NCBI GenBank assembly: GCA_002281755.1
Contig: NCHB01000010.1
Span: 6,644 to 70,643, forward strand
Direction of reading: 5' to 3'
Length of the DNA stretch: 64,000 nt
DNA from: Sulfurovum sp. 16-42-52
GTDB taxonomy: Bacteria > Campylobacterota > Campylobacteria > Campylobacterales > Sulfurovaceae
Shown: positions 12,374 to 54,984 of the stretch, piece by piece
How the letters are laid out: each line of letters starts with the position of its first letter
Numbering within the stretch: the first letter of the stretch is position 1
Made by a program: the position numbers and the translations under genes
Notes under the pieces: generated by a model
The model's input: the letters and a program-made list of their open reading frames with translations, nothing else
What the model was told of the DNA's origin: nothing
Database searches by the model: none

Positions 12374-12382
12374 GGAGTAAGC

Positions 12383-36955: not shown

Positions 36956-37976
36956 CATTCGGTATGACCGTATCCATGACACCCATGTGATTATCGCGCC
37001 TGAACGATTGTATCGTCCTGATTGCAGTTTTGGTGCGGATGAGCTTCAAAATGTTGAACCAACTTGTGCTTTTTGTGAAGGCAACGAATCGATGACACCG
37101 CCTGAAATTTTTGCCACGAGGAATCCCCAAACCCTTGCCAACACAGCAGGATGGCAGACCCGTGTCGTCCCCAATCTATATAAAGCGGTACAGATAGAAG
37201 CCCCTTATGCGCATCACTATGGTTTGTTTGAATACCACGAAGGGTTTGGCGCGCATGAAGTCATCATCGACACACCAGAACACTTGACTTCCATGACACA
37301 ATGGAACGCGCAGACAGCCGTACAGTGGCTCAAAACACTGCGTGCCAGAGTGCATGATCTGCGCCGTGATCAGCGTATGGCGTATATCTCTGTGTTTAAA
37401 AATGAAGGTATACTTGCAGGGGCAACACAGACACATTCGCATACACAGATGATCGGATTGCCGTTTGTGCCCAATGTTGCCAGAGAAAACTATAGAAGAA
37501 GTTACGAACACTATAAACAGCATGGCATATCCCTCTTGCAGTCCTGCGTTCAACATGAAGAAGAGCAACAGGAGCGCGTGATTGCCAAACATGGGGATTT
37601 TACTGCTTTTTGTCCCTTTGCCAGTGCGTATGCCTTTGAAGTGATGATCACCTCCCAAAAAGCACTGGGGCAGATCGATACCCTAAGTGATGAAAGTATC
37701 AACACACTGGCACCTCTGCTTCTTGCTACGCTTCGTGTTCTCAAAGCTCAACTGGTCTGTTTTGCTTTCAATCTTGTCATCACAACCCCACCTCTGCAAG
37801 AAGGCAGTGCGGATTATGGTATGCTTTCTTGTGTGGATGAAGCCTGTCGTTTTGCGGTGCGCATCATGCCACGCATCTACAAGCACGGGGGTTTTGAAGT
37901 AGGTACGGGTGTGTATATCAATCCTGTTTTGCCTGAAGTAGCCGCCAAATTATTGAGAGAGGGCATCGATGTCTAA
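36948..37976 (+). CDS. GalT/HIT-family nucleotidyltransferase (possible ADP-glucose phosphorylase)
   Basis: CAFCEGNE, VVPNLY, HEVIID, GATQTHSHTQ (HxHxQ), FEVGTG..INPV.PE. Confidence 0.85.
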   Translation: MSSIRYDRIHDTHVIIAPERLYRPDCSFGADELQNVEPTCAFCEGNESMTPPEIFATRNPQTLANTAGWQTRVVPNLYKAVQIEAPYAHHYGLFEYHEGFGAHEVIIDTPEHLTSMTQWNAQTAVQWLKTLRARVHDLRRDQRMAYISVFKNEGILAGATQTHSHTQMIGLPFVPNVARENYRRSYEHYKQHGISLLQSCVQHEEEQQERVIAKHGDFTAFCPFASAYAFEVMITSQKALGQIDTLSDESINTLAPLLLATLRVLKAQLVCFAFNLVITTPPLQEGSADYGMLSCVDEACRFAVRIMPRIYKHGGFEVGTGVYINPVLPEVAAKLLREGIDV

Positions 37977-39408
37977 ACCACGCTTGTTATTTTGTGCCAG
38001 TGAAGTCTATCCTTTTGCCAAAAGCGGAGGCTTGGCGGATGTTGCACACAGTTTACCTAGAGCACTGTGCAGTACGTATGCCGTTGAGGTGGTACTGCCT
38101 TTATATCAGTGTATTGATCGTGAAGCATTTGGCATCAAACCCTTGGGTGAGGAGTATGCCGTACAGATGGGTGGCATCTCTTACCCTGTGATGCTGTATG
38201 GTTGTACCTATGAGGGTGTGGCGTACCGTTTTATCTACTCACCTTTACTGTGTGACAGAACATTTCTCTACGGCCCACCAGATAGTGGGTATGAAGACAA
38301 TGCCTTGAGGTACGGACTTTTTAGCTATGCTGTTGTAACCCTCCTCAAAAAAGAAGCCTATAGCATTGTGCACCTCAATGACTGGCAGAGTGCTTTGGTT
38401 GCTTTGTTGATAAAAGAAGAGACCATTATCAAAACCAAGTCGGTATTTACGATTCACAATCTTGCTTATCAGGGTGTATTTGCACATCAAGCACTGCTTG
38501 AGTTGGGTTTGGATGGGCGATATTTTTCGATGGAAAGCATGGAGTTTTACGGACAGATCAATTTTATGAAAGCGGGTATCGCGTATGCAGACCGCATCAC
38601 AACCGTCAGTCCGACCTACGCCAAAGAGATCTTGACTCCTGAGTTTGGGTGTGGATTGGAAGGTTTCTTACACTTTCATCGCCATAAACTTTCGGGCATT
38701 GTCAACGGCATCGATACCAAACATTTTTCACCCTCGCAAGATAAAACGCTTGTTTTTCCGTATGTAGATCTAAGAGGAAAAGCGGTCAACAAAAGAGCCT
38801 ATCTCAAACAAACAGCACTCAAAGAGGCAAAAAAACCGCTCTTTATCTTTGTCGGACGTTTTGCCTCGCAAAAAGGCTTGGATTTATTGATAGAGATTTT
38901 ACCCGACTTGGTAAAAAGAGAGTGCACTATTGCATTTTTGGGAGAAGGGGAAAGCAAGTATCATCAGGCATTAGAAGCGCTTGCTAAGACGTATGATACT
39001 GTACATGTAACATGCGGGTATGATGAGGCTTTGTCACACCAAATGTACGCAGCGGCCGATTTTTTCTTGATGCCCTCGCTGTTTGAGCCGTGTGGATTAG
39101 CTCAGATGATAGCCATGCGCTACGGCGTGCTACCCATCGTGCATCATGTCGGTGGCTTGGCAGATACGGTACAGGATTATACCTCTTTTACTGCCCAATC
39201 TGCCAAAGGCTATGGTGTCGTATTTTCACAACCCAAAGCAGAGACTTTTTTAGCTGCTTTGGATGACGCTTTGGCATTGTATACCAACAAAAGACGCTAC
39301 AACAAGGTAGCAAAACACAATATGCGCTGTGATTTTTCCTGGCAAGAGAGTGCGAAGTCTTACCTTGAAATCTATGAAACACTTAGAGCGCAGAGCAGTC
39401 ATGCATAA
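37969..39408 (+). CDS. glgA: Glycogen synthase (GT5), copy 1
   Basis: FAKSGGLADV, HLNDWQ, TIHNLAYQG, PSLFEPCGL. Confidence 0.93.
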   Translation: MSKPRLLFCASEVYPFAKSGGLADVAHSLPRALCSTYAVEVVLPLYQCIDREAFGIKPLGEEYAVQMGGISYPVMLYGCTYEGVAYRFIYSPLLCDRTFLYGPPDSGYEDNALRYGLFSYAVVTLLKKEAYSIVHLNDWQSALVALLIKEETIIKTKSVFTIHNLAYQGVFAHQALLELGLDGRYFSMESMEFYGQINFMKAGIAYADRITTVSPTYAKEILTPEFGCGLEGFLHFHRHKLSGIVNGIDTKHFSPSQDKTLVFPYVDLRGKAVNKRAYLKQTALKEAKKPLFIFVGRFASQKGLDLLIEILPDLVKRECTIAFLGEGESKYHQALEALAKTYDTVHVTCGYDEALSHQMYAAADFFLMPSLFEPCGLAQMIAMRYGVLPIVHHVGGLADTVQDYTSFTAQSAKGYGVVFSQPKAETFLAALDDALALYTNKRRYNKVAKHNMRCDFSWQESAKSYLEIYETLRAQSSHA

Positions 39409-40897
39409 CTTAAGTATACTCATCGCAGCATCAGAAGTGGTTCCTTTTGCCAAGAGTGGCGGATTGGCTGATGTTGCAGGTGCATTGCCCAAAGCATTGG
39501 CTGCGTTGGGGCATGATGTACGTGTGGTGATGCCCTGCTATGCGAGTATTGACAAAGCACTCTATGGGCTGAAGCCTTTGGAAGGTGCATTAGGTGTGCC
39601 TATGGGTGTGATGGGCGAAGCGTGGGCGGGGGTTTATGAGAGCGTACTTCCGCAGAGTACTGTGAAGATTTACTTTATAGAACATCAGGGATTTTTCGGG
39701 CGAAAAGGACTCTATGATGAAGAGGGGCAAGGGTATGCAGACAATGACAATCGATTTATTTTTTTCTCCAGAGCCGTGATGCAACTGGCAAAGAAGCTGC
39801 GTTTTAGACCCGATGTCATACATGTCAATGACTGGCATACTGCGCTCATTCCCGTGTTGCTCAACACCGTGTACGCGAATGATGCCGATTTTAAAGGGAC
39901 AGGCACACTGCTGAGTCTGCATAACCTTCAGCATCAGGGCAAGTTCTACAAAGGTGCGATGGATGTGCTGGGTGTGGGGTGGGAACATTTTAATGCTTCT
40001 GAACTCGAAGAGTATGACGGTGTGAACTTTCTCAAAGGTGGTATCGTGCATGCAGATGCCTTTAATGCAGTGAGTCAAAAATACGCACAGGAGATCTGCA
40101 CCCCTGAGTTTGGCTGGGGGCTTGACGGTCTGATACGAGACAAGTCTTATAAACTCTACGGCATTGTAAACGGAGTTGATTATGAGGAGTGGAGTCCTGC
40201 TGTGGACACATTCATACCTGCTCGGTTTGACAGTGATGATTTAAGCGGTAAAGCAGTGTGTAAAGAAGCCTTGCAGCATCGCTTTGGTCTTGCGGTAAAG
40301 AGTGATGTGCCACTGATAGGTTTTGTGGGACGGCTGGCAGAACAAAAAGGCATCGCACTTATCGCAACCATCATAGAAAAACTGTTGCAGCTTGAGTTGC
40401 AGATTGTTTTGCTTGGTGCAGGTGAGAAATGGGCAGAACATTTTTTTTCCCAGCTGGCGTCACGGTACCCCTCCAAATTTGCCTGTTACATAGGCTATGA
40501 CAATGAACTTGCCCATACTATTGAGGCAGGAAGTGATCTCTTTTTGATGCCCTCACTGTTCGAGCCTTGTGGACTCAATCAGATTTACAGTCTGCGTTAC
40601 GGTACAGTTCCCATCGTGCGTGCCACGGGAGGGCTGGATGATACGATTGAGAATTATAACAGTGCAAACCGTAGCGGAACAGGGTTTAAGTTTTACGATG
40701 CGACCCCTGAAGCATTACAGGCTACAGTAGAGTGGGCGGTTGATACCTGGTACCATGACAAAGAGGGATTTAAGAAGTTACGCGACAACGGTATGTTGCA
40801 GCGTTTTAGTTGGCATGAGGCAGCCATAGCCTATGAAAACCTTTACCGTCACATCGTAGCCGGTCGTCATGGTAGCAAAGAGCAGGAAAGCAGATGA
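39401..40897 (+). CDS. glgA: Glycogen synthase (GT5), copy 2
   Basis: FAKSGGLADV, HVNDWH, LHNLQHQG, PSLFEPCGLNQ; start moved to 39401. Confidence 0.93.
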   Translation: MHNLSILIAASEVVPFAKSGGLADVAGALPKALAALGHDVRVVMPCYASIDKALYGLKPLEGALGVPMGVMGEAWAGVYESVLPQSTVKIYFIEHQGFFGRKGLYDEEGQGYADNDNRFIFFSRAVMQLAKKLRFRPDVIHVNDWHTALIPVLLNTVYANDADFKGTGTLLSLHNLQHQGKFYKGAMDVLGVGWEHFNASELEEYDGVNFLKGGIVHADAFNAVSQKYAQEICTPEFGWGLDGLIRDKSYKLYGIVNGVDYEEWSPAVDTFIPARFDSDDLSGKAVCKEALQHRFGLAVKSDVPLIGFVGRLAEQKGIALIATIIEKLLQLELQIVLLGAGEKWAEHFFSQLASRYPSKFACYIGYDNELAHTIEAGSDLFLMPSLFEPCGLNQIYSLRYGTVPIVRATGGLDDTIENYNSANRSGTGFKFYDATPEALQATVEWAVDTWYHDKEGFKKLRDNGMLQRFSWHEAAIAYENLYRHIVAGRHGSKEQESR

Positions 40898-42819
40898 GTC
40901 ATAGCATGTTGTATGAAGTCTCTACACTGAGTGAAATGGACATCTACCTTTTTAAACAAGGCAGCCATGCCAAGCTGTATGAAAAACTCGGTGCCCATAA
41001 GATGGTGTTGCAAATGAAACAGGGAGTCCACTTTGCGGTGTGGGCGCCCAATGCACAGACAGTGAGTGTGCGGGGGGATTTTAACGCGTATGATGCACTC
41101 ACACATCCACTCAAACAAAGAGAAGACGATTCGGGTATCTGGGAAGGTTTTATCGAAGGTGTGCAAGTGGGGCTGACTTACAAGTATCATATTGTTTCCA
41201 ACTATCATGGCATCGTGCATGACAAAAGTGATCCTTTTGCTTTTTACAGCGAAGCAGCACCTAAGTCTGCGTCGCGTGTATGGAGTCTTGAGAGCTATGG
41301 GTGGCAAGATGCAGCATGGATGAAAAAACGGCATCAACACAATGCCCATGATGCGCCAGTGAGCGTCTATGAGATGCATCTTGGCTCGTGGAAGAGAAAA
41401 GTTGAAGAGAACAACCGCTCCCTAAGCTACTCTGAACTGGCGGTTGAACTGCTTGCTTATCTCAAAATGATGAACTATACCCATGTTGAGTTTATGCCTT
41501 TGACTGAGTACCCTTTTGATGGTTCGTGGGGTTATCAGGTTGTGGGGTATTTTTCAGCTACGGCTCGTTTTGGAGAGCCTGAAGCGCTGATGTATCTGAT
41601 TGATATCTTGCATCAAAATAACATCGGTGTCATTATGGACTGGGTACCGTCACATTTTGCAGTAGATATGCATGGTCTTGTGAACTTTGACGGCACAGCA
41701 CTCTATGAGCATGCAGACCCCCAAAGAGGGTTTCATCCCGAGTGGGGGAGTTTTATATTTAATTACGGGCGTAATGAAGTCCGCTCTTTTCTCATCTCCT
41801 CAGCGATGTTTTGGCTTGAGAAATACCATGTTGACGGTATCCGTGTTGATGCCGTTGCATCGATGTTGTACCTAAACTATGCGCGTAAAGACGGGGAGTG
41901 GACACCCAACATCTATGGGGGTGATGAAAATCTTGAAGCGGTCGCTTTTTTGCGTAAGCTCAACGAGAGTGTGTATGCTGCATTCCCTGACATCATGATG
42001 ATAGCTGAAGAGTCTACGGCGTGGCCTATGGTGACACGCCCTACAAGCGTTGGAGGGCTCGGGTTTGGGTTTAAGTGGAACATGGGCTGGATGCATGACA
42101 CACTCAAATACATGAGTTATGACCCCATCGACAGACAACATCATCAGCAACAGCTCACCTTCAGTCTCTGGTATGCCTTTGATGAGCAGTTTATGCTGCC
42201 ACTCAGTCATGATGAGGTGGTACACATGAAAGGCTCACTTATCAATAAAATGCCCGGAGACACCAAACAAAAGTTTGCCAATCTACGCGCAATGTATGCG
42301 TATATGATGGCACATCCGGGTAAAAAACTGCTTTTTATGGGTGGTGAGATCGCCCAGTATGCCGAATGGAACTTTGAAAAAAGTCTTGACTGGCATCTGT
42401 TAGACGACCCCTTGCATGCAAACCTACAAACGATGTTAAGTGACCTTAACGCACTCTACCGAACTGAGCGTGCCTTGTACCTGTACGATGATAAACACGC
42501 AGGGTATGAGTGGATAGACAACACAGACGCTGCACATAACATCATCAGTTTTATGCGCAAAAGTGATGATGCCGATGAAACGGTTTATGTGGTGTGCAAC
42601 TTTGCCGACAAGACAAGAGCGTCTTACCTCTTGGGCGTACCATATGAAGGCAACTATGTTGAGATATTTAACTCCCAATCAACACGCTATGAAGGCTGGA
42701 ACATCAGCAATTCCACACCCCTAAAAGCCCAAAAAGTGGTTACGCACGGACGAGACTATTCTTTAGAATTGACTTTACCACCGTTGGGGGTGATTTATCT
42801 GAAGAGGGTGGTTGGGTAG
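40894..42819 (+). CDS. glgB: 1,4-alpha-glucan branching enzyme (GH13)
   Basis: FAVWAPNA, SWGYQ, DGIRVDAVASM, AEEST, PLSHDEVVH. Confidence 0.96.
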   Translation: MSHSMLYEVSTLSEMDIYLFKQGSHAKLYEKLGAHKMVLQMKQGVHFAVWAPNAQTVSVRGDFNAYDALTHPLKQREDDSGIWEGFIEGVQVGLTYKYHIVSNYHGIVHDKSDPFAFYSEAAPKSASRVWSLESYGWQDAAWMKKRHQHNAHDAPVSVYEMHLGSWKRKVEENNRSLSYSELAVELLAYLKMMNYTHVEFMPLTEYPFDGSWGYQVVGYFSATARFGEPEALMYLIDILHQNNIGVIMDWVPSHFAVDMHGLVNFDGTALYEHADPQRGFHPEWGSFIFNYGRNEVRSFLISSAMFWLEKYHVDGIRVDAVASMLYLNYARKDGEWTPNIYGGDENLEAVAFLRKLNESVYAAFPDIMMIAEESTAWPMVTRPTSVGGLGFGFKWNMGWMHDTLKYMSYDPIDRQHHQQQLTFSLWYAFDEQFMLPLSHDEVVHMKGSLINKMPGDTKQKFANLRAMYAYMMAHPGKKLLFMGGEIAQYAEWNFEKSLDWHLLDDPLHANLQTMLSDLNALYRTERALYLYDDKHAGYEWIDNTDAAHNIISFMRKSDDADETVYVVCNFADKTRASYLLGVPYEGNYVEIFNSQSTRYEGWNISNSTPLKAQKVVTHGRDYSLELTLPPLGVIYLKRVVG

Positions 42820-42851: not shown

Positions 42852-42914
42852 CTAATCCAGAGTGCAAGACCTATGAATAAAAAAGAGAGGATAGCTTATG
42901 AAAACCATTCCTAA
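42852..42914 (+). pseudogene. brnT: 3' remnant of a BrnT-family toxin gene
   Basis: Frame reads LIQSARPMNKKERIAYENHS*, matching the BrnT C-terminus pattern (ISARxMNKKER..YE) and overlapping the brnA start. In-frame TAA at 42846; no upstream coding room. Confidence 0.7.
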
Positions 42915-43149
42915 ATTTACGACACCAGAAGAAGAACAAACATTTTGGCAGAACCATGACAGTACTGAGTTTCTGGATTGGGAAAAAGCAAAAAAAGTCA
43001 AACTTCCAAACCTAAAGAAGAGTACAAAAACCATCTCGTTAAGGCTACCTGCGGATATGCTTGAAACGCTAAAGATAAGAGCCAACGCGATGGATATTCC
43101 TTATCAATCGCTCATCAAGATGTTTTTGCAAAAAGAGCTAGGGTCTTAA
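42898..43149 (+). CDS. BrnA/CopG-type antitoxin
   Basis: IPKF..EEE..FW..HDSTEFLDW, KTISLRLP, IPYQSLIK. Confidence 0.88.
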   Translation: MKTIPKFTTPEEEQTFWQNHDSTEFLDWEKAKKVKLPNLKKSTKTISLRLPADMLETLKIRANAMDIPYQSLIKMFLQKELGS

Positions 43150-43169: not shown

Positions 43170-44804
43170 TTAAAAAAGTGTAGACACTATCTCTTGTGCC
43201 TCATCCTGTATCTGCTTCAGATGCACTTCGTCGATGAAGCTTTCAGCGTAGATCTTGTAGATGGGTTCTGTGCCTGAGGGGCGTAGGGCGAACCAGCCGT
43301 TTTTGGCTACGACTTTAAGCCCACCGATGGCTGCACCATTTCCGGGTGCATGGGTTAAGACAGCCTCTATGGCTTCACCTGCAAGCATGGTTGCTTTGAT
43401 GTCAAGGGCGTTAAGGTTTTTAAGTTTTTTAGCCTGTTCAAGTGTGGCAGGTGCATCGATGCGGGCATAGATGGGTGCACCGAACTTTTGGGTAAGTTCT
43501 AGGTAGTGCTCACCCGGGTCACGGCTTGTAGTTGCTAGTATCTCAGCAGCCAGAAGAGTCATGATGATACCGTCTTTATCGGTACTCCACACGCTTCCGT
43601 CTTTACGCAAGAAACTAGCCCCCGCACTCTCTTCACCCCCGAAAAAGACAGTACCGTTGGTTAGCCCCTCAACAAACCACTTGAACCCAACAGGCACTTC
43701 TATGACTTTTTTTTCTAGTGATGCAGCCACACGGTCTATCATCGAGCTGCTTACAAGGGTTTTTCCTATCCCAAGATCAGATTTCCATAGTGGGCGGTTT
43801 TGGGCTAGGTAGTTGATGGCAACACTGAGGTAATGGTTGGGGTTCATGAGTCCCACACTTTTGGTCACGATGCCGTGACGGTCAAAGTCGGTGTCATTTC
43901 CAAAAGCGATGTCATACTTCTCTTTCATCGCCACCAGTCCCGCCATGGCATACGAAGAAGAGCAGTCCATGCGTATCTTGCCGTCTTTGTCGCAGTGCAT
44001 GAACGAAAAGGTTGAGTCAAGTGTATCGTTGAAAACCTCCATGTTGAGACCATAACGCTCTTTGATGGCAGTGTAATACGCCATACCCGAACCGCCCATC
44101 GCGTCTGCTCCGATAAAGATACCTGACTTAGCAATGGCTTCCATGTCGATGACATTTTCCAAATCATCGACATAAGGGGTTACATAGTCATACTCTACAA
44201 GATACTCTGAACTCAATGCCTCATTCAGCGTGATTTTTTTGACTTCTTGGAGTCCATTTTCCATTAGTGCATTGGCACGCTTTTCTATCCAGTCTGTGAC
44301 ATCGGTATCGGCGGGCCCACCATGGGGTGGGTTGTACTTGAAACCTCCATCTGCAGGCGGGTTATGGGATGGGGTGATAACGATACCGTCACACAGAACA
44401 GCAGTATCTTTATTGTGTGTCAAAATGGCATGGGAGATAACCGGGGTAGGGGTGTAAGCTAAATCTTTGGCGATGTGCACAGTCACCCCATTGGCGCAGA
44501 GTACTTGCAAAGCAGAGAGCTGTGCAGGATAAGAAAGTGCATGGGTATCCATCCCCATAAATAAAATCCCTGTGATGCCAGCTTCTTTTCGGTAATCACA
44601 GACCGCTTGTGTGACTGCTAGTATGTGGTTCTCGTTAAAACTGCCTAGAAGCGAAGAGCCACGGTGACCTGAAGTACCAAACGCGATGCGCTGTGTAGGG
44701 TTTTTGGTATCGGGTGTTTTGGTGTAGTATTCGCTGATGAGCCTAGGAATATTAACAAGAATTGATTTGGGTGCCAGCTTGCCAGCGTGAGGATGAAGCG
44801 CCAT
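43170..44804 (-). CDS. pgm: Phosphoglucomutase
   Basis: [16 protein letters not shown] (catalytic Ser), [22 protein letters not shown]. Confidence 0.96.
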
Positions 44805-45000
44805 GGTGTGCCTTTTGTAAAGTTGAAATGTGAATGATAGTGTATCGTCTCTCTTCTATAATTTGGCATAGGCTATTGGTTAAAATTGAAACAATGGTGT
44901 TATTTTTTTTCTGTGGATTTTTGACTATAATTAACACAGGTACTCCTCAAGCTAACTAAGAGATAGATGAGTGATAGTGCCATGTTAAACAAAGGGTAAA

Positions 45001-47955
45001 ATGATGAATCAAGAGCTACTGCAGGTGAGACTTGATAGACATTTTGAGGTGATTGAAAAGATCATCCTAAGAAGACAAGATGCTGTGACGGGATTGCTGC
45101 CTGCGAGTACAGCTGTCAATGCACACGGGGACTACACCGATGCATGGGTCAGAGACAATGTCTATAGCATCCTTTCGGTGTGGGGTTTGGCACTGGCGTA
45201 CAAAAAGTACAATCCTCTACATCATCGCACTTTTGTTTTGTCGGGATCTGTGGTCAAGCTGATGCGAGGTCTGCTTTTGGCGATGATGCGCCAGAGTGAT
45301 CGTGTGGAAGCATTTAAAAACACTCACAATCCCTGTGATGCCCTGCATGCAAAGTACGGTACACACACGGGGTTGGCGGTAGTGGGAGATGATGAGTGGG
45401 GGCATTTGCAACTTGATGCCACCTCTTTGTATCTGCTGATGCTGGCACAGATGACAGCTTCAGGCTTACGTCTGATTTACACGATGGATGAAGTACATTT
45501 TGTTCAAAATTTGGTGCATTACATCTCTCATGCCTACTGCACAGCCGATTATGGTATTTGGGAACGGGGGAACAAGATAAACCATGGAACGACAGAGATA
45601 AACGGCAGTTCTGTGGGGATGGCAAAAGCGGCACTTGAAGCACTGGATGGGTTTAATCTCTTTGGTAATACACAAAGCAAGGAAGCAGTCATCCATGTGG
45701 TGCTGAGTGATGTGGCGCGTTCACGGGCTACCTTGCAAGGGCTTTTACCTAGAGAGTCCAACTCCAAAGAGACCGATGCGGCGCTGTTGAGCATTATCGG
45801 GTATCCGGCGTATGCGGTGGAGGATGAAAAACTGCTCAAACGCACACGGGATAAGATCCTCAAAAAATTGGCAGGAAACTACGGCTGTAAACGCTTTTTG
45901 CTCGATGGACATCAAAGCAGTATTGAAGATGCAAGCCGTTTGCACTATGAGCCTTCAGAGTTGCGTGAATTTGAACATATCGAATCAGAATGGCCGCTGT
46001 TTTTTACCTATTTGTTACTCGATGCCCTGATGCGTGATGATAAGGATGCAGTACAGCATTGGCACGATAAATTGCAGCCCCTTTTTGTGGTGCAAGATGG
46101 CGTGGCACTTTTGCCTGAACTCTATATCGTACCCAAAGCCTCCATTGTAGCCGAGAAACAAAACCCCGGAAGCCAAGAGCGTTATGCCAATGAAAACATC
46201 CCTTTGGTCTGGGCACAAAGCCTCTATATGCTTTCAGATATGATGCTTGATGGTCTGCTTTTGCCTGAAGATATTGATCCTTTAAATCGGCGTGCCTGTA
46301 TTGGGAAACAGACTACTGTGAAACCTTTAGTACCCGTGTTGGCTGAAAATGAAGCAGTCAAAGAACAGTTGCTTCAACTTGGTTTTTTGAGTCAAACAGT
46401 AGCAGAGGTCAAACCCCTGAAAATCATGTATGCTTCTGTGCTCTCCGCGGTACATACATTGGTGGGTAAAAATACAAAACTGGGATTAACGGGTCGTCCT
46501 TTTGCCGTAACTCGTACCATTGCTACCTCACGTGTGCATGAACTTATGGGAGCAAAAGTCATCTTCCTTCCTTACTACTTTAATCCCCAAGGATTTTATT
46601 TTTCCTATGACAATACCTTACTTGCAGAACACTTTCGTGCTTCTTTGAAGTTTCTCTGCTCACAGTGGAATAAAAGTAAACAGCCTTTTATGCCTTTTCT
46701 TGTTAGAGAAGCCATGTTTGGCAATGAAGACAAGCGTGCTCTGCTTGACTTGTTGTCTGACATACACAGTGGTGTATTTGATGGTATACCCATTCAAACG
46801 GGCTCAATTGAAGCGATGTTAAGTAGTTCAGATGTGGAATGCATTGATGGGTTAGATGGGTTTAACTTAGAAGAGCATGAGCTAGTCTTTTATACCGAAT
46901 CTGCAGTATTGTGGCATGACTGGTCGGCCATACGCGATTTGGCAGAATCAAACGGGCGATATGATGACCGTTTGGAAGATGTCCTGCTCGATATCATCAT
47001 ACGCCAAAAAAGATTGGCAGTTGGGCGAGCCTACAGTGAAAAAGCGACCTTTTCGCAACCCTCTGAAAGTAGGGCTATCGTGCAAACCATCAAAGAATTT
47101 TGCGGTAACAATAGAGCTGAAAGCACCCTGACACAGGAAATCATTTTACATTTGGGCTACCTTATCCGTAGTGAACCCGAACTGTTTGAGCATATATTGA
47201 CCCTTCGTACTTGGTATTTTATCCAGTTGTTAGTCGGCAAGATAAGTAGAGAACAGCATCTGCCTATGGGGGAAGCGTATGAGCGATTGCTTGGTTTGGC
47301 TCCGCATCTTATCTATAACTGTGTGCGAGACATCTTAAAGTCTTTTTCACAAGAGGTCAAGAGTCTATTGACGATGGAAAATCTGCATTCACAGGGTACT
47401 GCCTTTATTACATCTGTGCAAACTACTCCGATGTTAGATGAAGCCGATGGGGTAAAAGAATGGGCAAGGTGGAGAGAAGAAAGAGGTATGGTGGGGGCAT
47501 TTTCACAGACTTTTTACAAAGATATATGGTATGTACTGCGTCAATGTAGCGCTTTGGTCATCGGTGAAAAGTTTAACAAGCAAAACCGTATGGGCGCAGA
47601 GTTTACGCTAGATGCAACGGCAGGCGAACGCAGTTTTGCCTTGAAGATCGATGCATTACTTCAAAGTATCGCCGCACCCGATTATCGTCAGCTCAACATC
47701 GAAGCTTTAGAGAGTCTGGTGAGACTCTTTAGGCAAAATCCACAGCTTTATCTGCAAGATGATCTTATACTCGATGTATTGATCGGGCATGCGGTACGGG
47801 TTGCATGGCAGAAGCATCATCACGGCAACTATGACGAACACAGAGCTTGGGCATGGGAAGCGTTTTACAAGCTCTCACCCAGCCAAACCGATGAAGCATT
47901 TATTGAAGCCTTTATGTATTTGCTTTTACCACAGGAAGAAAGTATTACCATTTAA
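45001..47955 (+). CDS. GH15-family protein resembling phosphorylase kinase alpha/beta subunits
   Basis: TGLLPAS, AWVRDNVYS, HLQLDATSLY, DYGIWERG, ESNSKETDA, GCKRFLLDG, SEWPLFF, LPELY, PLVWAQSLY. Confidence 0.85.
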   Translation: MMNQELLQVRLDRHFEVIEKIILRRQDAVTGLLPASTAVNAHGDYTDAWVRDNVYSILSVWGLALAYKKYNPLHHRTFVLSGSVVKLMRGLLLAMMRQSDRVEAFKNTHNPCDALHAKYGTHTGLAVVGDDEWGHLQLDATSLYLLMLAQMTASGLRLIYTMDEVHFVQNLVHYISHAYCTADYGIWERGNKINHGTTEINGSSVGMAKAALEALDGFNLFGNTQSKEAVIHVVLSDVARSRATLQGLLPRESNSKETDAALLSIIGYPAYAVEDEKLLKRTRDKILKKLAGNYGCKRFLLDGHQSSIEDASRLHYEPSELREFEHIESEWPLFFTYLLLDALMRDDKDAVQHWHDKLQPLFVVQDGVALLPELYIVPKASIVAEKQNPGSQERYANENIPLVWAQSLYMLSDMMLDGLLLPEDIDPLNRRACIGKQTTVKPLVPVLAENEAVKEQLLQLGFLSQTVAEVKPLKIMYASVLSAVHTLVGKNTKLGLTGRPFAVTRTIATSRVHELMGAKVIFLPYYFNPQGFYFSYDNTLLAEHFRASLKFLCSQWNKSKQPFMPFLVREAMFGNEDKRALLDLLSDIHSGVFDGIPIQTGSIEAMLSSSDVECIDGLDGFNLEEHELVFYTESAVLWHDWSAIRDLAESNGRYDDRLEDVLLDIIIRQKRLAVGRAYSEKATFSQPSESRAIVQTIKEFCGNNRAESTLTQEIILHLGYLIRSEPELFEHILTLRTWYFIQLLVGKISREQHLPMGEAYERLLGLAPHLIYNCVRDILKSFSQEVKSLLTMENLHSQGTAFITSVQTTPMLDEADGVKEWARWREERGMVGAFSQTFYKDIWYVLRQCSALVIGEKFNKQNRMGAEFTLDATAGERSFALKIDALLQSIAAPDYRQLNIEALESLVRLFRQNPQLYLQDDLILDVLIGHAVRVAWQKHHHGNYDEHRAWAWEAFYKLSPSQTDEAFIEAFMYLLLPQEESITI

Positions 47956-47970
47956 AACAAGGATAGCAGT

Positions 47971-48954
47971 ATGATACTAGCAGGTGATATAGGCGGAACC
48001 AAAACCAACCTTGCACTTTTTGAAGCCCAAGATGGCAAACTTCAGGTTGTCGTGCAAAAACAGTTTGCCAGTCAAAAGTATGCCACTTTTTCAGATGTGA
48101 TAGAGGCTTTTAAAAAAGAGTGTGTGCTGCCTACGATTGATGCGGTTTGTTTTGGCATTGCAGGGCCTATCATCGGGGGAGACTGTGAGACGACAAATCT
48201 GCCTTGGAAAATCAGTACACAGGCACTCCAAGACTACTTAGGGATCAAAAAGGTACGTTTGTTAAATGATCTTGAAGCCACAGCCTATGGGATGTTGTAT
48301 GTACCCCAAGAGGAGTTTGTAGATTTGAATCCAAGTGCTCAGACGCTGAAGGGCAATCGTGCCGTTATCGCTGCGGGAACGGGACTGGGTGAAGGCATCT
48401 TGTATGATGATGGCGCACGCTACCATCCCATAGGCTCTGAAGGAGGTCACAGCGATTTTGCACCTCTAACGCCTCAGCAAGATGCGCTTCTTTTGTGGTT
48501 GCGTATGCGTTATCCTGAACATGTCAGTTATGAACGCATCCTCTCAGGCTCAGGGATATCTACCCTTTATGCGTTTTTGCTTGAGAGCGGTTTTGCGCCA
48601 CAACCCCAAAGCATGTTGCATCTTAATGAAGATGAAGACCGCAGTGCAATCATCAGCCAATGCGCACTAAATGATGGTGATCCTTTATGTGTGGAAACCT
48701 TGCGGCTCTTTGCCCAAATCTATGGTGCTGAAGCAGGCAATCTTGCGTTAAAAAGTATGTCTCTTGGAGGCGTATACATCGGCGGAGGCATTGCTCCCAA
48801 GATTTTACCGATGTTAAGAGAGAGTCATTTTATGGATGCTTTTGTCAGCAAAGGACGTTTTGAAAAAATGCTGAGTAAGATGCCGGTTCGGGTCTGTCTC
48901 AATCCCGAGACTGCCTTGCTGGGTGCTGCCTATTTCGCACACGATATGCTGTAA
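47971..48954 (+). CDS. glk: Glucokinase
   Basis: AGDIGGTKT, LLNDLEA, GTGLGEG, SEGGH, GGVYIGGGIAPK. Confidence 0.95.
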   Translation: MILAGDIGGTKTNLALFEAQDGKLQVVVQKQFASQKYATFSDVIEAFKKECVLPTIDAVCFGIAGPIIGGDCETTNLPWKISTQALQDYLGIKKVRLLNDLEATAYGMLYVPQEEFVDLNPSAQTLKGNRAVIAAGTGLGEGILYDDGARYHPIGSEGGHSDFAPLTPQQDALLLWLRMRYPEHVSYERILSGSGISTLYAFLLESGFAPQPQSMLHLNEDEDRSAIISQCALNDGDPLCVETLRLFAQIYGAEAGNLALKSMSLGGVYIGGGIAPKILPMLRESHFMDAFVSKGRFEKMLSKMPVRVCLNPETALLGAAYFAHDML

Positions 48955-49082
48955 AACAGTGTATTCTCTTTTTATACATTCTATTGACTAAAATATAATC
49001 AAGACACGTATTTTTTTGTTATCGTATTGCGTTATACTCATTCTATAGCATTTATCTAACGGGACAGTTGAGGATAGAGAGA

Positions 49083-50546
49083 ATGAATGAGATCAAAAGC
49101 GACTGTGACATTATAGTCTTTGGCGGACACGGTGATTTGGCTTTTAGAAAACTGATGCCTGCACTGTATCATTTGAGTAATAACGGCTATATCGATGAGA
49201 CAAGCCGTATTATCACCGCAACACGGGATGCGATGAGTCTGGAAGAGCATTGCAGACTCACACGCTCCAAACTACAGGAGTTTTTACCCGAAGCAGACTT
49301 TGATGAAGCAAAATGGCTTCGTTTTGAAAAACAGCTTCAGGTTGTGATTATCGATTTCGGTGAAAATGAAAGTTACAGCGGACTCAAAGCGTTACTGGAT
49401 GCCTATCCTCAGAGAGATAGAGTGAACTATCTTTCTACGGCTCCCGATTTTTTTGGTGCGATTTGTAAGTCGCTGAGTCAGTGGGAACTCATCAGCCCCC
49501 AAAGTAGAGTGGTACTGGAAAAACCAATCGGGCGTGATCTTCACTCTTCAAGAGTTATTAACGTTGAGGTTTTAAAGTATTTTGACGAATCACAGATTTA
49601 CCGTATCGATCACTATCTAGGCAAAGACACGGTGCAGAACATCATGGCACTTCGATTTTCAAATCGCTTTTTTATGCCGCTTTGGGATGCAAGTAACATT
49701 GACCATATCCAGATTACTGTGGCTGAAAGTGTTGGCGTTGAGGGACGCTGGGGGTATTATGATGAGTACGGTGCGATGCGTGACATGATACAGAACCATC
49801 TCATGCAGCTGCTTTGTCTTGTGGCGATGGAGCCACCTTGCTCTGTAGATGCAGACAATGTGCGTGATGAAAAGGTAAAAGTCTTACGATCTTTGCGCCT
49901 TATGACACCATCGGATATCGAGCAAAAAACAGTTCGTGCCCAATACACTCAAGGAGCAAGTAGCGGCGAGCCTGTACCAGGATATCGCGAGGGAGAGGGA
50001 GTGAGCGAAAGCAATACAGAGACTTTTGCCGCTATTCGTGTCGATATAGACAATTGGCGCTGGAACGGCGTACCGTTTTATCTTAGAAGCGGAAAACGTA
50101 TGCGTCAGAGAAATTCGGAAATCGTGATCTACTTTAAAGCCGTTCCGCACTCTATCTTTGTCAATCAGGGCAAATGTATCTCGGAAAATAAACTGGTGAT
50201 ATCCCTGCAACCCAAAGAGAGCATCCATCTTCAGCTGATGAACAAGATCCCGGGGCTGAGCGAACATATGCGTTTGCAAAAAGTTGAACTTGAACTCAAT
50301 ACACCTCTTAACACAACCCATAAACCAGATGCCTACGAGCGTCTGCTTCTGGATGTGATTCGCGCCAACCCGACACTCTTTATGCGACTGGATGAAGTGG
50401 AAGCCGCATGGAAATGGGCAGATGTGATCTTAAAAGGATGGCAGGAAGATGTTGTCCCCATGAAAAGCTACAGTGCAGGTACAGACGGACCAAGCGCAGC
50501 CGTACAGCTCATCGCGCGAGACGGACGGAGCTGGCACGATGAGTAG
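49083..50546 (+). CDS. zwf: Glucose-6-phosphate dehydrogenase
   Basis: GGHGDLAFRKL, RIDHYLGK, GAMRDMIQNH, WNGVPFYLRSGK; ATG 49083. Confidence 0.97.
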   Translation: MNEIKSDCDIIVFGGHGDLAFRKLMPALYHLSNNGYIDETSRIITATRDAMSLEEHCRLTRSKLQEFLPEADFDEAKWLRFEKQLQVVIIDFGENESYSGLKALLDAYPQRDRVNYLSTAPDFFGAICKSLSQWELISPQSRVVLEKPIGRDLHSSRVINVEVLKYFDESQIYRIDHYLGKDTVQNIMALRFSNRFFMPLWDASNIDHIQITVAESVGVEGRWGYYDEYGAMRDMIQNHLMQLLCLVAMEPPCSVDADNVRDEKVKVLRSLRLMTPSDIEQKTVRAQYTQGASSGEPVPGYREGEGVSESNTETFAAIRVDIDNWRWNGVPFYLRSGKRMRQRNSEIVIYFKAVPHSIFVNQGKCISENKLVISLQPKESIHLQLMNKIPGLSEHMRLQKVELELNTPLNTTHKPDAYERLLLDVIRANPTLFMRLDEVEAAWKWADVILKGWQEDVVPMKSYSAGTDGPSAAVQLIARDGRSWHDE

Positions 50547-51234
50547 GGTATTGCACAGTTTTCAGACTCAGGAAACCCTGATAGATGCTTTGAGCCAAAG
50601 TATACTGAAAAATCTTCAAGAAGCCATAGAGGAAAGAGGAAAAGCATCTTTGATCGTCTCAGGAGGCAGCACGCCAAAGCCCTTGTTCCAAAAACTGAGC
50701 ACGCTGTCTTTTGCGTGGGAAAAGGTGAGTGTAGGTTTGTGTGATGAGCGATGGATACCCGCTTGGGATGAAGAGAGCAACGAACATCTGGTTAAAACCT
50801 ATCTGCTTCAAGACAAAGCAAGTGCAGCTACTTTTGTGGGGATGTATGAAGAGGGATGTGAGGCAGGAGAAGCTGAAATACTATGTTCCCAAAAGATCAA
50901 AGAGAGTCTGTTTCCTTTTGATGTGCTGGTGTTAGGAATGGGAGTTGATGCCCATACCGCTTCTTTGTTTCCGTACAATGTCAAACTGGGACAGGCTTTT
51001 GATCTGGAGTCTGAAGCGCTTTGTATCGCCATCGAGCCTACAACGGCACCCTATATGCGGTTGAGTTTGACACGCAAGGCGCTATTGAGTGCGCAGCATA
51101 TCTATCTGCATTTTGAAGGCAAAGAAAAACAGGCTGTTTATGCGGAGGTGATTGCGGGGGATGATTGTTATGCCATGCCTGTGCGAACCGTTTTAAATCA
51201 AAATGACAAACAAATAGAGGTGTATTACCGATGA
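50539..51234 (+). CDS. pgl: 6-phosphogluconolactonase
   Basis: VSGGSTP, DERW, LGMGVDAHTASLFP; start moved to 50539. Confidence 0.95.
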   Translation: MSRVLHSFQTQETLIDALSQSILKNLQEAIEERGKASLIVSGGSTPKPLFQKLSTLSFAWEKVSVGLCDERWIPAWDEESNEHLVKTYLLQDKASAATFVGMYEEGCEAGEAEILCSQKIKESLFPFDVLVLGMGVDAHTASLFPYNVKLGQAFDLESEALCIAIEPTTAPYMRLSLTRKALLSAQHIYLHFEGKEKQAVYAEVIAGDDCYAMPVRTVLNQNDKQIEVYYR

Positions 51235-53060
51235 ATGAAACGATCTTAAGTGTCACAGATGCCATCATAAAACGTTCGGCAAAGAGCAGAGCCGTCTATC
51301 TGGAGCGCATCGCACAAGCAAAAGTGCAGGGCGTGAACCGAAACAAACTGGGGTGCAGTAATCTCGCCCATGCCATGGCTCCGATGGATGAGAATGAAAA
51401 GAATGCACTTGCAGGCATGCAAAGTCCCAACATTGCTATCGTTACAGCCTATAACGATATGCTCTCAGCGCATGAGCCCTACAAACTCTATCCGGCACTG
51501 ATTAAACGCACATTTAAAGATTTGGGCGCTACGGCTCAGGTTGCTGGTGGTGTACCTGCCATGTGTGACGGCATCACGCAGTCACAGCCGGGTATGGAGC
51601 TGAGTCTGTTCAGTCGGGACAATATCGCCATGGGAACAGCGATTGGGCTTTCTCACAATGTCTATGACGGTGCATTGTATCTGGGTGTATGTGACAAGAT
51701 CGTACCCGGGCTGGTTATCGGTGCATTGGCGTTTGGTCATCTGCCGGGGATGTTTGTACCCGCAGGTCCGATGCCCTCAGGTATCAGTAATGCACAAAAA
51801 GCCAAGGTACGTCAAGAGTTTGCCCAAGGCAAAGTAAGCGAAGACTCTTTGCTTAAAGTGGAAGCAGCTTCTTACCACAGTAGCGGCACCTGTACCTTTT
51901 ACGGTACCGCCAATTCAAATCAGATGCTGCTTGAAATGATGGGGTTGCAGCTTCCAAACAGCTCTTTTGTCAACACCAATACACCCCTCAGAGAAGCACT
52001 CACAGCAGAGGCAGCCAAAACCATCGTGGGGATGACGAATCTATCGGGAAACTATAAACCCATAGCAGAAATCATTGATGAAAAAAGTTTTGTCAATGCC
52101 ATCGTCGGCTTGATGGCAACGGGAGGTTCAACCAACCATACCATCCATATCATCGCCATGGCAAGAGCTGCGGGGATTGTCCTCAACTGGGATGATTTTG
52201 ATGCCATTTCCAAAGTCACACCTTTACTGTGCAAGATGTACCCCAACGGGCAGGCTGATGTCAACCATTTTAGAGATGCCGGCGGTATGAGTGTGGTCAT
52301 TTCGCAGCTGCTTGATGCTGGACTGGTACACAATGATGTCCAAACCGTTGTAGGAAAAGGCTTGGATGCTTATATCGCTGAACCTACTCTCAACCAAGGG
52401 AGTGTCATTTTTCAAGAGGGAGCCAAAACGTCAAGAGATACATCGGTCATTGCAAGCATTCAAGCACCATTTAGTACTGAGGGCGGACTCAAACTGCTCA
52501 ATGGCAATCTGGGTCGCAGTGTCATCAAAACCTCTGCACTCAAACCCGAACAGTTCGTCATCGAAGCGGAGGCCATCGTCTTTGAATCGCAGGAATCTTT
52601 ACAGACTGCATTTAAAAAGGGTGAGTTGGAAAAAGACTTTATCGCTGTTGTACGCTATCAGGGGCCAAAGTCCAACGGTATGCCTGAACTGCATGGACTT
52701 ATGCCACCTTTGGGTGTACTGCAAGATAAAGGCTTTAAGGTGGCTATTGTCACCGATGGGCGTATGTCAGGGGCTTCAGGAAAAGTGCCTTCAGCCATTC
52801 ACCTCTCTCCTGAAGCACTTGATGGAGGGATGCTAGCAAAAGTTAAAACAGGCGATATGATCCGTTTTGATGCCCAAAAAGGTGAGATTTTACTTTTGGT
52901 AGAAGAGGAAGAACTACAAACACGAAGCATAGAACTACCCGATATGCAGAGCAATCGACACGGTTTTGGCAGAGAGCTTTTTGTCTGGGTACGCCAAAGC
53001 ATAGGCTCAGCTGAAGAGGGTGCTTGCGTGTTTGATATCAGCGGAAAGGAGCGTGCATGA
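51231..53060 (+). CDS. edd: Phosphogluconate dehydratase
   Basis: [40 protein letters not shown]. Confidence 0.96.
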
Positions 53061-53698
53061 CAGCCAAAGAAGTGATGCAAATCTCACCCATCGTCCCCGT
53101 CATCGCTTTAGAAAAAGTGGAGGATGCTTTGGCGCTTGCTGAAGCGTTGCTTGAAGGTGGTATAAGCGTGATGGAAGTCACACTTCGCACCGATGCAGGA
53201 CTCAAAGCCATAGAAGCCATAGCGAAGTCCATGCCGCAGATGCATGTGGGTGCAGGAACAGTACTCAATGCAAATGACATGAAAGCCGCACTGTTGCATG
53301 GGTCGCAGTTTGTCTTTAGTCCGGGTATCTCTGAAGAACTGATGCGGGCTTCTAGGGAGATGGACATCACACTCATTCCCGGTGTAGCGACGGCGTCTGA
53401 AGTGATGCTGGCTAAAAATCATGGATTTGAGCACTGTAAACTCTTTCCCGCTACGCTGGCTGGCGGGGTTGAAGCCCTCAAAGCGTTTGGCGGGCCTTTT
53501 GCTTCTATGCGATTTTGTCCCACAGGAGGGGTAGGTCTCGCCAATCTCAATGACTTTTTGGCACTTCCCAATGTGCTGTGCGTAGGCGGAAGCTGGATAG
53601 TACCCAAAACATCCATAGACAACAAAGATTTTAAGCACATCACAAGACTCTGCAAAGAGGCACTGCAGACAATTCAATCAACAAAGGTGACAGTATGA
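53057..53698 (+). CDS. eda: KDPG/KHG aldolase
   Basis: EVTLRT, VGAGTV, FSPG, KLFPA, FCPTGG. Confidence 0.96.
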   Translation: MTAKEVMQISPIVPVIALEKVEDALALAEALLEGGISVMEVTLRTDAGLKAIEAIAKSMPQMHVGAGTVLNANDMKAALLHGSQFVFSPGISEELMRASREMDITLIPGVATASEVMLAKNHGFEHCKLFPATLAGGVEALKAFGGPFASMRFCPTGGVGLANLNDFLALPNVLCVGGSWIVPKTSIDNKDFKHITRLCKEALQTIQSTKVTV

Positions 53699-54906
53699 AA
53701 AACAAACTCTATTTCAATGCCAACAATACAAAGGAGGAGCAAAGAGCGTTTGAAGCCATCGTGAAAGAACAGGAAACAGTCGGGTATTATGCCTTGCCAA
53801 ATCAGGATGTGAGCCCTATACTGGAGTATTGCAACACCATTTCGCAGGATGTAACCACCATCGCAGTCATCGGCATCGGTGGGAGTTCTTTGGGTGCCAA
53901 AGCGGTGTATGAGTTTATGAAACCGGTTAAAGAACTAAGCAGAAAACTCTATTTTTTTGAAAGTACCGATCCTATCAACATCACTGATTTGCTCTCTAAG
54001 TTTGATGTTAAAACCACCCATTTTTTGGTCATCTCCAAGTCAGGTAGCACGGTGGAGACTTTTTCTATTTATAAATATATCTATTCCTTGCAAAGTGACC
54101 CCTCTGCCTATACCTTCATCACCGACCCAGGGTCTCCGCTTGAAAAGTATGCGCAGTCCATCAAAGCTTCAGTGCTGCATCTGCCCGATAATGTAGGCGG
54201 TAGATTTTCAGTACTCTCAAGCGTAGGACTTGTACCACTCGCACTATGCGGCATCGATATCATCTCTTTACTAGCAGGTGCAAAAAAGATAAAAAGCAGT
54301 TTTTTTGACAATGGTTATACACAGGACATGCTTCTAAATAAAGCCGTCTACTACGCCAAAAACCACGCACAGTACAACATCAACTGTATCTTTGCTTATT
54401 CTGAAACACTCAAGTATTTTTGTCAGTGGTATGTACAGCTGTGGGGGGAGAGTCTGGGTAAACACCAGCGTCACAGTGCTTTTCATGTAGGTCTTACTCC
54501 TATCGGTCTCATCGGACCCAAAGACCAGCACTCCTTTTTACAGCTCATCATGGAAGGCACAAGAGACAAGTCTGTGACGTTTATCAAGATTGAAGATTTT
54601 CATGAAGATATCGTCATCCCTGACATCACCCTGCCACATCTTGAGATGCTCGACACACTCAATAACCTGCCATTCTCAAAACTCATCAATATGCAGTGTG
54701 ACTCAGTCGTAGAAGCCTTGCTGGATCAAGAGAGTATCCCACTCGATACCATCACCCTGCAAAGTGTCACAGAGGACAACATCGGATCGTTGATATTTTA
54801 CTACGAACTGCTGACTTCTTTGGTAGGAGAACTTATCGATGTGAACACCTATGACCAGCCAGGGGTGGAAGCGGGCAAGATTATTTTGAAGAAAAAACTG
54901 GGGTAA
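53695..54906 (+). CDS. pgi: Glucose-6-phosphate isomerase
   Basis: GIGGSSLG, SKSGSTVET, VGGRFSVLS, QLWGESLGK, YDQPGVEAGK. Confidence 0.95.
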   Translation: MKNKLYFNANNTKEEQRAFEAIVKEQETVGYYALPNQDVSPILEYCNTISQDVTTIAVIGIGGSSLGAKAVYEFMKPVKELSRKLYFFESTDPINITDLLSKFDVKTTHFLVISKSGSTVETFSIYKYIYSLQSDPSAYTFITDPGSPLEKYAQSIKASVLHLPDNVGGRFSVLSSVGLVPLALCGIDIISLLAGAKKIKSSFFDNGYTQDMLLNKAVYYAKNHAQYNINCIFAYSETLKYFCQWYVQLWGESLGKHQRHSAFHVGLTPIGLIGPKDQHSFLQLIMEGTRDKSVTFIKIEDFHEDIVIPDITLPHLEMLDTLNNLPFSKLINMQCDSVVEALLDQESIPLDTITLQSVTEDNIGSLIFYYELLTSLVGELIDVNTYDQPGVEAGKIILKKKLG

Positions 54907-54955
54907 GGCAGGTCATCAGAAATTACCAAACGCTTACTTCTCACATCACCCCTTT

Positions 54956-54984
54956 CCACTAGCCCTTTGTCTAGTGGGTTTTTC
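54956..54984 (+). terminator. Rho-independent terminator ending the ED operon
   Basis: CCACTAG-ccctttgt-CTAGTGG followed by GTTTTT. Confidence 0.7.

Follow-up and report, generated by a model that had tools for sequence, protein, structure and literature searches.

What does a bacterial relative of the phosphorylase kinase (PhK) alpha and beta subunits do when it stands alone? The question is raised by a gene at 45001..47955 on the forward strand of a 64,000-nucleotide stretch of Sulfurovum sp. 16-42-52 (contig NCHB01000010.1, positions 6,644 to 70,643; hereafter the window), which encodes a PhK alpha/beta-like protein of glycoside hydrolase family 15 (GH15). PhK alpha and beta have posed a puzzle since their GH15-like domains were recognised, reportedly by Pallen in 2003. 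Cryo-EM work in 2024 found the active site of alpha to be apparently intact and without activity (PMC10978961). A stand-alone bacterial orthologue could settle this puzzle of an intact but inactive site, and it represents a simple system for the chemistry of the chassis, with a complete catalytic set, no kinase partners and a clear context of glucokinase (glk) and Entner-Doudoroff (ED) genes.

Our full-text literature search found no paper describing or testing bacterial PhK alpha/beta homologues, and phosphorylase kinase is not mentioned in a 2024 review of prokaryotic alpha-glucan enzymes (PMC11046441). The family is already recorded in databases, under the names 'glycoside hydrolase family 15 protein' (NCBI) and 'phosphorylase kinase alpha/beta subunit' (JGI), and Pfam holds its architecture; the gene is thus a further member of a known, uncharacterised family. 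Given the homology, residue conservation, fold and genomic linkage described below, we lean, by a modest degree, towards a GH15 hydrolase that works in the cytoplasm and releases glucose in a glycogen route independent of phosphorylase. If active, such an enzyme would represent a hydrolytic route of glycogen mobilisation in chemolithoautotrophs and methanotrophs that is unlisted in reviews (PMC11046441), would explain the retention of glucokinase by obligate autotrophs, and would suggest a specific way in which PhK alpha could have become inactive. If inactive, the protein would suggest that glucan sensing without catalysis is an ancient role, older than the kinase.

Homology to PhK alpha and beta along the whole protein

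The gene is a single uninterrupted open reading frame (ORF) of 984 amino acids, and gene callers chose its second Met as the start on identical public contigs, resulting in 983 residues from 45004 as the probable annotated form. The product matched the Pfam model PF00723 (Glyco_hydro_15) with E=4.7e-76 and 256.8 bits against a cut-off of 22, placing it in GH15 by sequence, with the model's own sequence set presumably taking in PhK-type proteins. Residues 750-980 (47248..47940) matched PF19292 (KPBB_C), the C-terminal domain of PhK alpha and beta equivalent to their domains D4-D5, with E=9.8e-76 and 254.5 bits. In phmmer searches against the Protein Data Bank (PDB), human PhK alpha (8jfk_M) was matched with E=1.5e-197 in three collinear segments (residues 8-611, 640-781 and 795-908), while human PhK beta (8jfk_B), whose domain order is the same, was matched with E=7.8e-158. 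Judged from these alignments, the homology is far beyond chance, and its full-length, collinear extent including KPBB_C places the protein in the PhK alpha/beta family (PF00723 plus PF19292; KEGG K07190), as a first-pass annotation of the window had proposed. That annotation had also described a long C-terminal region of unknown role, and this description has to be revised because the KPBB_C match and the collinear alpha segments identify the region as the counterpart of PhK domains D2-D5. Compared with most homologues (about 1060-1090 residues), the window protein is missing 79 residues after position 633 (nucleotide about 46899), a short form common to about 10 of 77 sequences, and the gap falls where PhK alpha bears its large regulatory insert.

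Sequence searches of the PDB by phmmer and hmmsearch, using the full protein, its first domain (D1) and profiles of 30 close and 23 diverse homologues, matched PhK alpha and beta only and did not reach canonical GH15 structures. The sole NCBIfam match of the protein was a weak one to the archaeal trehalase TreH1 (E=7e-7). By direct reading, no signal peptide was seen at the N-terminus, which points to a cytoplasmic location, and a secreted amylase was rejected on this ground.

Homology to PhK, together with the label given to the relatives by JGI, could be taken to indicate a true regulatory subunit of a bacterial PhK-like protein kinase. However, human alpha has gamma kinase and calmodulin partners, a regulatory insert of about 200 residues (alpha 613-821) and a CaaX farnesylation site, whereas the bacterial protein has neither partner, no counterpart of the insert, and a C-terminus reading ...QEESITI with no CaaX. 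The Hanks-kinase motif HRDxKxxN and the PROSITE phosphorylase (pyridoxal phosphate) signature were both absent from all six frames of the window, and one of each was found in 1.29 Mb of neighbourhood sequence lying within 10 kb of 80 homologues. The first-pass statement that the cluster holds no phosphorylase or kinase can therefore be extended to the 64-kb window, by domain matches as well as six-frame motifs. With kinase, regulatory insert and CaaX all missing, a kinase-regulatory role is contradicted, and we rejected this explanation as one deserving next to no credence.

Retention of the GH15 active site

Two motifs had been singled out as carrying candidate catalytic glutamates, and their positions proved exact: GIWERG occupies residues 185-190 (45553..45570) and LPELY residues 371-375 (46111..46125). 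E188 (45562-45564) aligns with Glu185 of human alpha and E373 (46117-46119) with its Glu371, without gaps around either motif. Glu185 and Glu371 have been identified structurally as the GH15 catalytic pair, D1 of human alpha superposing on the GH15 glycosidase PDB 5Z3F at 2.9 A over 330 residues (PMC10978961). The two glutamates of the bacterial protein do, then, align with the GH15 catalytic pair, the point on which the earlier proposal could have failed. E188, in GH15 region S3 (GIWERG), is the predicted general acid, and E373, in region S5 (LPELY), the predicted general base.

All five conserved regions of Aspergillus niger glucoamylase (EC 3.2.1.3; sequence validated against PDB 3EQA, 994.6 bits) are present in the window protein with the same intra-motif spacing. 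Region S1 (45130..45156) reads D44-Y45-T-D-A-W49-V-R51-D52, as compared with D47-Y48-F-Y-T-W52-T-R54-D55 in A. niger; region S2 (45397..45417) reads W133-G-H-L-Q137-L-D139, as compared with W120-G-R-P-Q124-R-D126; and region S4 (45889..45912) reads K-R298-F-L-L-D302-G-H, with R305 and D309 as the A. niger equivalents of R298 and D302. The window residues Y45/W49/R51/D52 and W133/Q137/D139 thus correspond to A. niger Y48/W52/R54/D55 and W120/Q124/D126, W187/E188 to W178/E179, E373 to E400 and W404 to W417, and the subsite -1 Tyr, Trp, Arg, Asp, Trp and Arg of S1, S2 and S4 are all in place. Across 77 full-length bacterial homologues spanning Campylobacterota, Gammaproteobacteria, cyanobacteria and Myxococcota, the 19 positions checked were invariant or nearly so, and 13 active-site or signature positions were invariant (Y45, W49, R51, D52, W133, Q137, D139, W187, E188, R298, D302, E373 and W404). 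Both catalytic glutamates were kept in 77/77 sequences, and the patterns D-Y-x3-W-x-R-D, W-G-x2-Q-x-D and R-x3-D were invariant and spaced as in the A. niger enzyme.

Identity to A. niger glucoamylase is about 14%, and hhalign gave a weak local alignment over S2-S3 (E=0.027, probability 1.8%) in the expected register, with W133-G-x-x-Q-x-D on W120-G-x-x-Q-x-D and W187-E188 on W178-E179. E373 is accordingly equated with E400 by motif order and the PhK structure rather than by a direct significant alignment to a canonical GH15 protein, and the correspondence is to be read as a predicted one. Because sequence searches reach only PhK, the residue mapping draws on the published structure of PhK alpha together with motif spacing and the fold search. 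The A. niger enzyme differs further in being secreted, in having a starch-binding domain, and in reading WEE where the window protein reads WER followed by a 10-residue insertion. In an alternative hhalign alignment of weak statistics for the stretch 45577-45600 (residues 193-200), this insertion (RGNKINHGTT) is placed after the general acid, and an invariant E199-I-N-G-S-S pairs with A. niger E180-V-N-G-S-S; the second Glu of 'WEE' may therefore be displaced (E199) rather than lost.

D1 spans residues 1 to about 440 (45001..46320) and was modelled separately with AlphaFold2, using a more diverse alignment than was used for the full-length protein. The resulting model, which is helical throughout, had a predicted local distance difference test (pLDDT) score of 80 and a predicted template-modelling (TM) score of 0.87. 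The first-pass annotation had suggested a comparison with the PhK cryo-EM structures, and in Foldseek searches D1 of PhK alpha, solved by cryo-EM, was matched with a TM score of 0.88. The next matches were the isomaltose glucohydrolase of Kribbella flavida (KfIG; E=3.6e-9, TM 0.72) and A. niger glucoamylase (E=8.5e-5), both with a Foldseek probability of 1.00, giving D1 a GH15-type (alpha/alpha)6 fold. By contrast, the full-length model, built from 30 close homologues, had a mean pLDDT of 63 with active-site regions below 50; given these low scores, it is used solely as evidence that the best fold matches are those to PhK alpha and beta (8JFK A and B, E=4.5e-45).

KfIG (EC 3.2.1.205; PDB 5Z3A-F, 7C24/25) is the closest characterised GH15 fold to D1. 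Like D1 it is a single (alpha/alpha)6 domain without an N-terminal beta-sandwich, the TM score of 0.72 being calculated on the target; unlike the window protein it has 371 residues, no D2-D5, specificity for isomaltose and no link to PhK, and the two are 18% identical. Its deposited mutants, E178A, E335A and Y48F, suggest an acid/base/Tyr triad like that of the window protein, and show that a Tyr at number 48 was probed by its authors. This likeness brings in the main rival to the favoured reading, namely an active GH15 hydrolase of another specificity, acting on alpha-1,6 linkages of the isomaltose type or single-glucose branch stubs, on trehalose or on another alpha-glucoside, with the glucose still passed to glucokinase. 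The KfIG match and the weak TreH1 match both speak for it, and limit dextrins were not among the substrates tried on human PhK (PMC10978961). However, with an identity of only 18% the specificity of KfIG cannot be transferred, and human PhK was inactive on isomaltose (PMC10978961). Together with the gene-neighbourhood evidence given further below, these points leave another specificity unlikely in our estimate, though deserving of attention.

GH15 also includes retaining transglucosidases in which the same two glutamates are conserved in sequence (PMC12446779), and a dextran dextrinase (DDase)-like enzyme of this kind would remodel alpha-glucans. The dyads diagnostic of the DDase cluster, Gly-Glu in S5 and Phe-Tyr in S4 (PMC12446779), are absent from the window protein, where S5 reads L-P-E373 and S4 reads K-R-F-L-L-D, and the association with glk suggests that free glucose is what the enzyme produces. 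Because the diagnostic dyads are lacking, the protein falls outside the DDase cluster and a retaining transglucosidase was rejected as highly improbable.

Divergence of the human subunits from the bacterial proteins

Human PhK alpha (PHKA1; PDB 8JFK, 8Z5M) has the same Glu pair and the same W/R/D/W/Q/D/R/D/W pocket residues as the window protein, has the KPBB_C domain in common with it and is 53-55% identical to it in D1, with cyanobacterial homologues being 62-64% identical to human alpha in this domain. By contrast, alpha and beta are 47% identical to each other in D1, and the window protein and beta 44%. By these identities human alpha resembles the bacterial proteins more closely in D1 than it resembles its paralogue beta, suggesting that alpha keeps an ancestral, enzyme-like constraint. 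Human PhK beta (PHKB) has lost six pocket residues (the Tyr, W49 to K, R51 to Q, W133 to Y, D139 to N and E373 to K); a catalytic role is not expected of it, and its sequence appears to illustrate the drift of pocket residues that are no longer needed.

One difference between alpha and the bacterial proteins lies within the pocket. The bacterial segment P-A-S-T-A-V-N-A-H-G-D-Y-T-D-A-W is nearly invariant, whereas human alpha reads P-A-S-Y------D-Q-K-D-A-W, with a six-residue deletion and a Gln at the position of Tyr45. The bacterial proteins thus keep both the 'TAVNAHGDY' loop and Tyr45, and alpha retains every other pocket residue. Tyr45, which is the equivalent of A. niger Tyr48 by spacing, is found in all 77 bacterial sequences. 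In the A. niger enzyme, Tyr48 is said to hydrogen-bond the catalytic base, and its mutation reportedly cuts kcat about 100-fold (work attributed to Frandsen et al., Biochemistry 1994). No glucose release from maltose, isomaltose or glycogen was seen with either the holoenzyme of human PhK or its alpha-gamma-delta subcomplex (PMC10978961). Since Tyr45 is kept in bacteria and lost in alpha, the inactivity of human alpha need not hold for the bacterial protein, and the fuller catalytic set predicted for the latter weakens, without removing, the inference from these negative assays.

The same assays bear on a further explanation, that of a scaffold or regulator which binds glycogen without catalysis, using its GH15 pocket solely to hold glucan ends, and which organises or regulates glucokinase or the glycogen enzymes. 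Its five-domain architecture is that of PhK alpha and beta, which appear non-catalytic; alpha keeps its Glu pair and binds acarbose with no detectable hydrolase activity (PMC10978961); and the C-terminal 550 residues of the bacterial protein, a part that makes protein contacts in PhK, are strongly conserved. Against this, both glutamates, the Tyr and all subsite -1 residues are invariant across four phyla, which is beyond the usual needs of binding, whereas residues of PhK beta drift quickly when unneeded. Tyr45 is kept by the bacterial proteins and lost by alpha, and a partner kinase is not nearby, given a single Hanks motif in the 1.29 Mb of flanking sequence and its absence from the window. 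A scaffold role is thus quite unlikely in our judgement.

A midpoint-rooted neighbour-joining tree, in which human alpha and beta were the only two eukaryotic sequences, placed both outside the sampled bacteria, which formed one cluster; with these two alone, the tree does not indicate which way a transfer between bacteria and eukaryotes would have run. We entertain, as a serious though tentative possibility, that the bacterial proteins represent the active, ancestral-type chassis of PhK alpha and beta, a cytoplasmic GH15 glucosidase working with GH57 enzymes and glucokinase in a phosphorylase-independent route that is widespread in Campylobacterota, methanotrophs and others. On this view, PhK alpha would descend from this form with little divergence (55-64% identity in D1), its activity lost through the loop deletion that removed the base-supporting Tyr.

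Linkage to glucokinase and the proposed glycogen route

Species-representative genomes contained at least 591 stretches with relatives of the gene, identified by the peptide patterns AHGDYTDA and WVRDNVYS, and the family comprises 313 clusters at 50% clustering (E <1e-30). Its carriers among Campylobacterota include Sulfurovum, Sulfurimonas, Sulfuricurvum, Arcobacter, Halarcobacter, Hydrogenimonas and Sulfurospirillum. Methylococcales, many filamentous cyanobacteria and one Polyangiaceae genome also carry it, as do other Gammaproteobacteria such as Guyparkeria, Thiohalobacterales, Saccharospirillum, Paraglaciecola and Aliiglaciecola. The identical gene is present in the metagenome-assembled genomes GCA_035429405.1, GCA_054642055.1 and GCA_027309165.1; orthologues occur in the complete genomes of Sulfurovum sp. 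XGS-02, Sulfurimonas aquatica and Halarcobacter (CP182352.1), and long forms, for example, in Sulfurovum, Methylomonas and Nostoc. Counting only loci with enough flanking sequence, a same-strand glk lay directly downstream in 24/27 Campylobacterota-type loci and in 10/19 other proteobacterial loci. That this pairing persists across proteins just 40-55% identical makes it the strongest functional clue, pointing to free glucose as the product or as what the partner handles. ED genes adjoin in varied arrangements (for example, in loci L037 and L039): zwf-pgl-edd-eda stands upstream of the PhK-like gene in Sulfuricurvum-type loci, zwf-pgl-edd-glk-eda precedes it in Saccharospirillum, and edd-eda lies on the opposite strand in L039. 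In Guyparkeria hydrothermalis, the start of the PhK-like gene borders directly on an oppositely oriented 881-residue ORF with no Pfam match (L048:7312-9957, reverse strand).

In the window, the PhK-like gene heads a run of glk, zwf, pgl, edd, eda and pgi that lies entirely on the forward strand from 47971 to 54906, as the first-pass annotation had described, and the human alpha gene shows no such operon-like setting. The glucokinase gene glk (47971..48954; TIGR00749 above cut-off) begins 15 nucleotides 3' of the PhK-like gene. It is followed by zwf (glucose-6-phosphate dehydrogenase, 49083..50546), pgl (6-phosphogluconolactonase, 50539..51234), edd (phosphogluconate dehydratase, 51231..53060), eda (2-keto-3-deoxy-6-phosphogluconate aldolase, 53057..53698) and pgi (glucose-6-phosphate isomerase, 53695..54906). 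NCBIfam models were matched above cut-off by zwf, edd and pgi and an equivalog-domain model by pgl, while eda was assigned by subfamily models only.

In the route that we favour, the protein would be an inverting GH15 exo-alpha-glucosidase built on a five-domain chassis common with PhK alpha and beta, taking glucose off the cell's own storage alpha-glucan. The substrate would be either glycogen or maltodextrins, the latter supplied from glycogen by the neighbouring GH57 amylopullulanase-like and 4-alpha-glucanotransferase enzymes. E188 would protonate the glycosidic oxygen, while E373, held by Y45, would activate the attacking water. The freed glucose would be phosphorylated by the presumably co-transcribed glucokinase, and Zwf, Pgl, Edd and Eda (with Pgi) would process glucose-6-phosphate, resulting in a hydrolytic path from glycogen to pyruvate without phosphorylase. 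Domains D2-D5 may serve oligomerisation or glycogen binding. The physiological analogue that we propose is the GH15 glucoamylase of Sulfolobus acidocaldarius, an archaeal enzyme which, from its architecture, we take to lie outside the PhK-like clade. It has been linked to hydrolytic breakdown of the organism's own glycogen: its mutants behave as glycogen-catabolic, and GH57 enzymes are also present in this organism (PMC11046441). Obligate methanotrophs have a real flux of free glucose from glycogen that passes through Glk, as observed in work that also describes glk mutants (PMC8062543). By analogy, the Sulfolobus case may parallel the favoured route, and the methanotroph flux would fit it.

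The two GH57 genes belong to a glycogen cluster upstream, on the same strand. The first (32885..34873) encodes a protein resembling the GH57 amylopullulanase of Aquifex aeolicus (E=1e-87), and the second (34907..36955) a 4-alpha-glucanotransferase of the Thermococcus litoralis type (PDB 1K1W; E=1.8e-144). Glycogen phosphorylase, GlgX and MalQ were not found among the ORFs of at least 400 amino acids in the window. This gene content also bears on another specificity for the hydrolase. A glucanotransferase without GlgX could leave single-glucose stubs for a dedicated glucosidase, as for the glucosidase half of the eukaryotic debranching enzyme, and linkage to glk suits any glucose-releasing hydrolase. 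However, the amylopullulanase-like enzyme already in the cluster could in principle debranch, an enzyme confined to stubs would need a phosphorylase for the bulk chains and none is present in the window, and domain matches of the window's ORFs revealed no trehalose-synthesis genes to accompany a trehalase.

Several observations weigh against a hydrolase of the glycogen route. Besides the negative assays of the human complexes, conserved catalytic residues in GH15 fix neither mechanism nor substrate (PMC12446779), an Arg rather than a Glu follows the general acid, and confidence in the D1 model is low in the active-site loops (residues 37-46, 184-199 and 293-314). The substrate may differ from alpha-1,4 glycogen ends, because the nearest fold of a characterised enzyme is that of an isomaltose glucohydrolase, which acts on an alpha-1,6 linkage. 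Linkage is not universal: glk was directly downstream in 0/21 cyanobacterial loci, cyanobacterial and Alteromonadaceae copies have neither glk nor glycogen genes as neighbours, and these copies and that of Polyangiaceae have no conserved neighbours at all, their flanking genes being unrelated. The GH57 4-alpha-glucanotransferase alone could yield the glucose used by glk, and a glgP gene may exist elsewhere in the genome, the absence of phosphorylase covering the window alone. Finally, the exact sequence was found in mine-drainage, mine-tailings and aquatic DNA metagenomes only, and in no RNA runs.

Among the remaining features around the gene, pgm (phosphoglucomutase, 43170..44804, reverse strand; domain matches) is transcribed divergently. 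The 196-nucleotide intergenic region between pgm and the PhK-like gene holds the best sigma-70-like promoter match of the region (44834..44862, forward strand), and a terminator-like hairpin with a T-run follows pgi (54955..54978, forward strand), both being consensus matches only. The glycogen cluster is headed by an 835-residue fusion of a sugar-1-phosphate nucleotidyltransferase (with LbH) and a phosphogluco/phosphomannomutase (30375-32882, forward strand), which also adjoins the PhK-like gene in loci L007, L011, L026 and L027. A canonical GlgC was not found in the window, where glgC models scored well below cut-off. Downstream of the GH57 genes, a GalT-like gene of the hexose-1-phosphate nucleotidyltransferase family (36948-37976, forward strand; below equivalog cut-offs) overlaps the ends of the GH57 glucanotransferase and first glgA genes, and a relative of it follows glk in L024; its product may be a nucleoside-diphosphate-glucose phosphorylase or a transferase tied to glycogen metabolism. 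Two tandem glgA paralogues (glycogen synthases, 37969-39408 and 39401-40897) and glgB (branching enzyme) then extend on the forward strand over 37969..42819, all recognised by domain matches.

Between glgB and pgm lies an 83-residue CopG-antitoxin-like ORF (about 42898-43149, forward strand), which is called by gene finders on identical public contigs. Nearer the start of the window, an 884-residue ORF (2958-5612, forward strand) matched neither Pfam nor NCBIfam models at the thresholds applied. Subunits of a 2-oxoacid:ferredoxin oxidoreductase (11153-13336), an isocitrate dehydrogenase (19647-21107) and an SbtA-like bicarbonate transporter (21209-22189) are also encoded in the window, and these genes fit a CO2-fixing Campylobacterota host.

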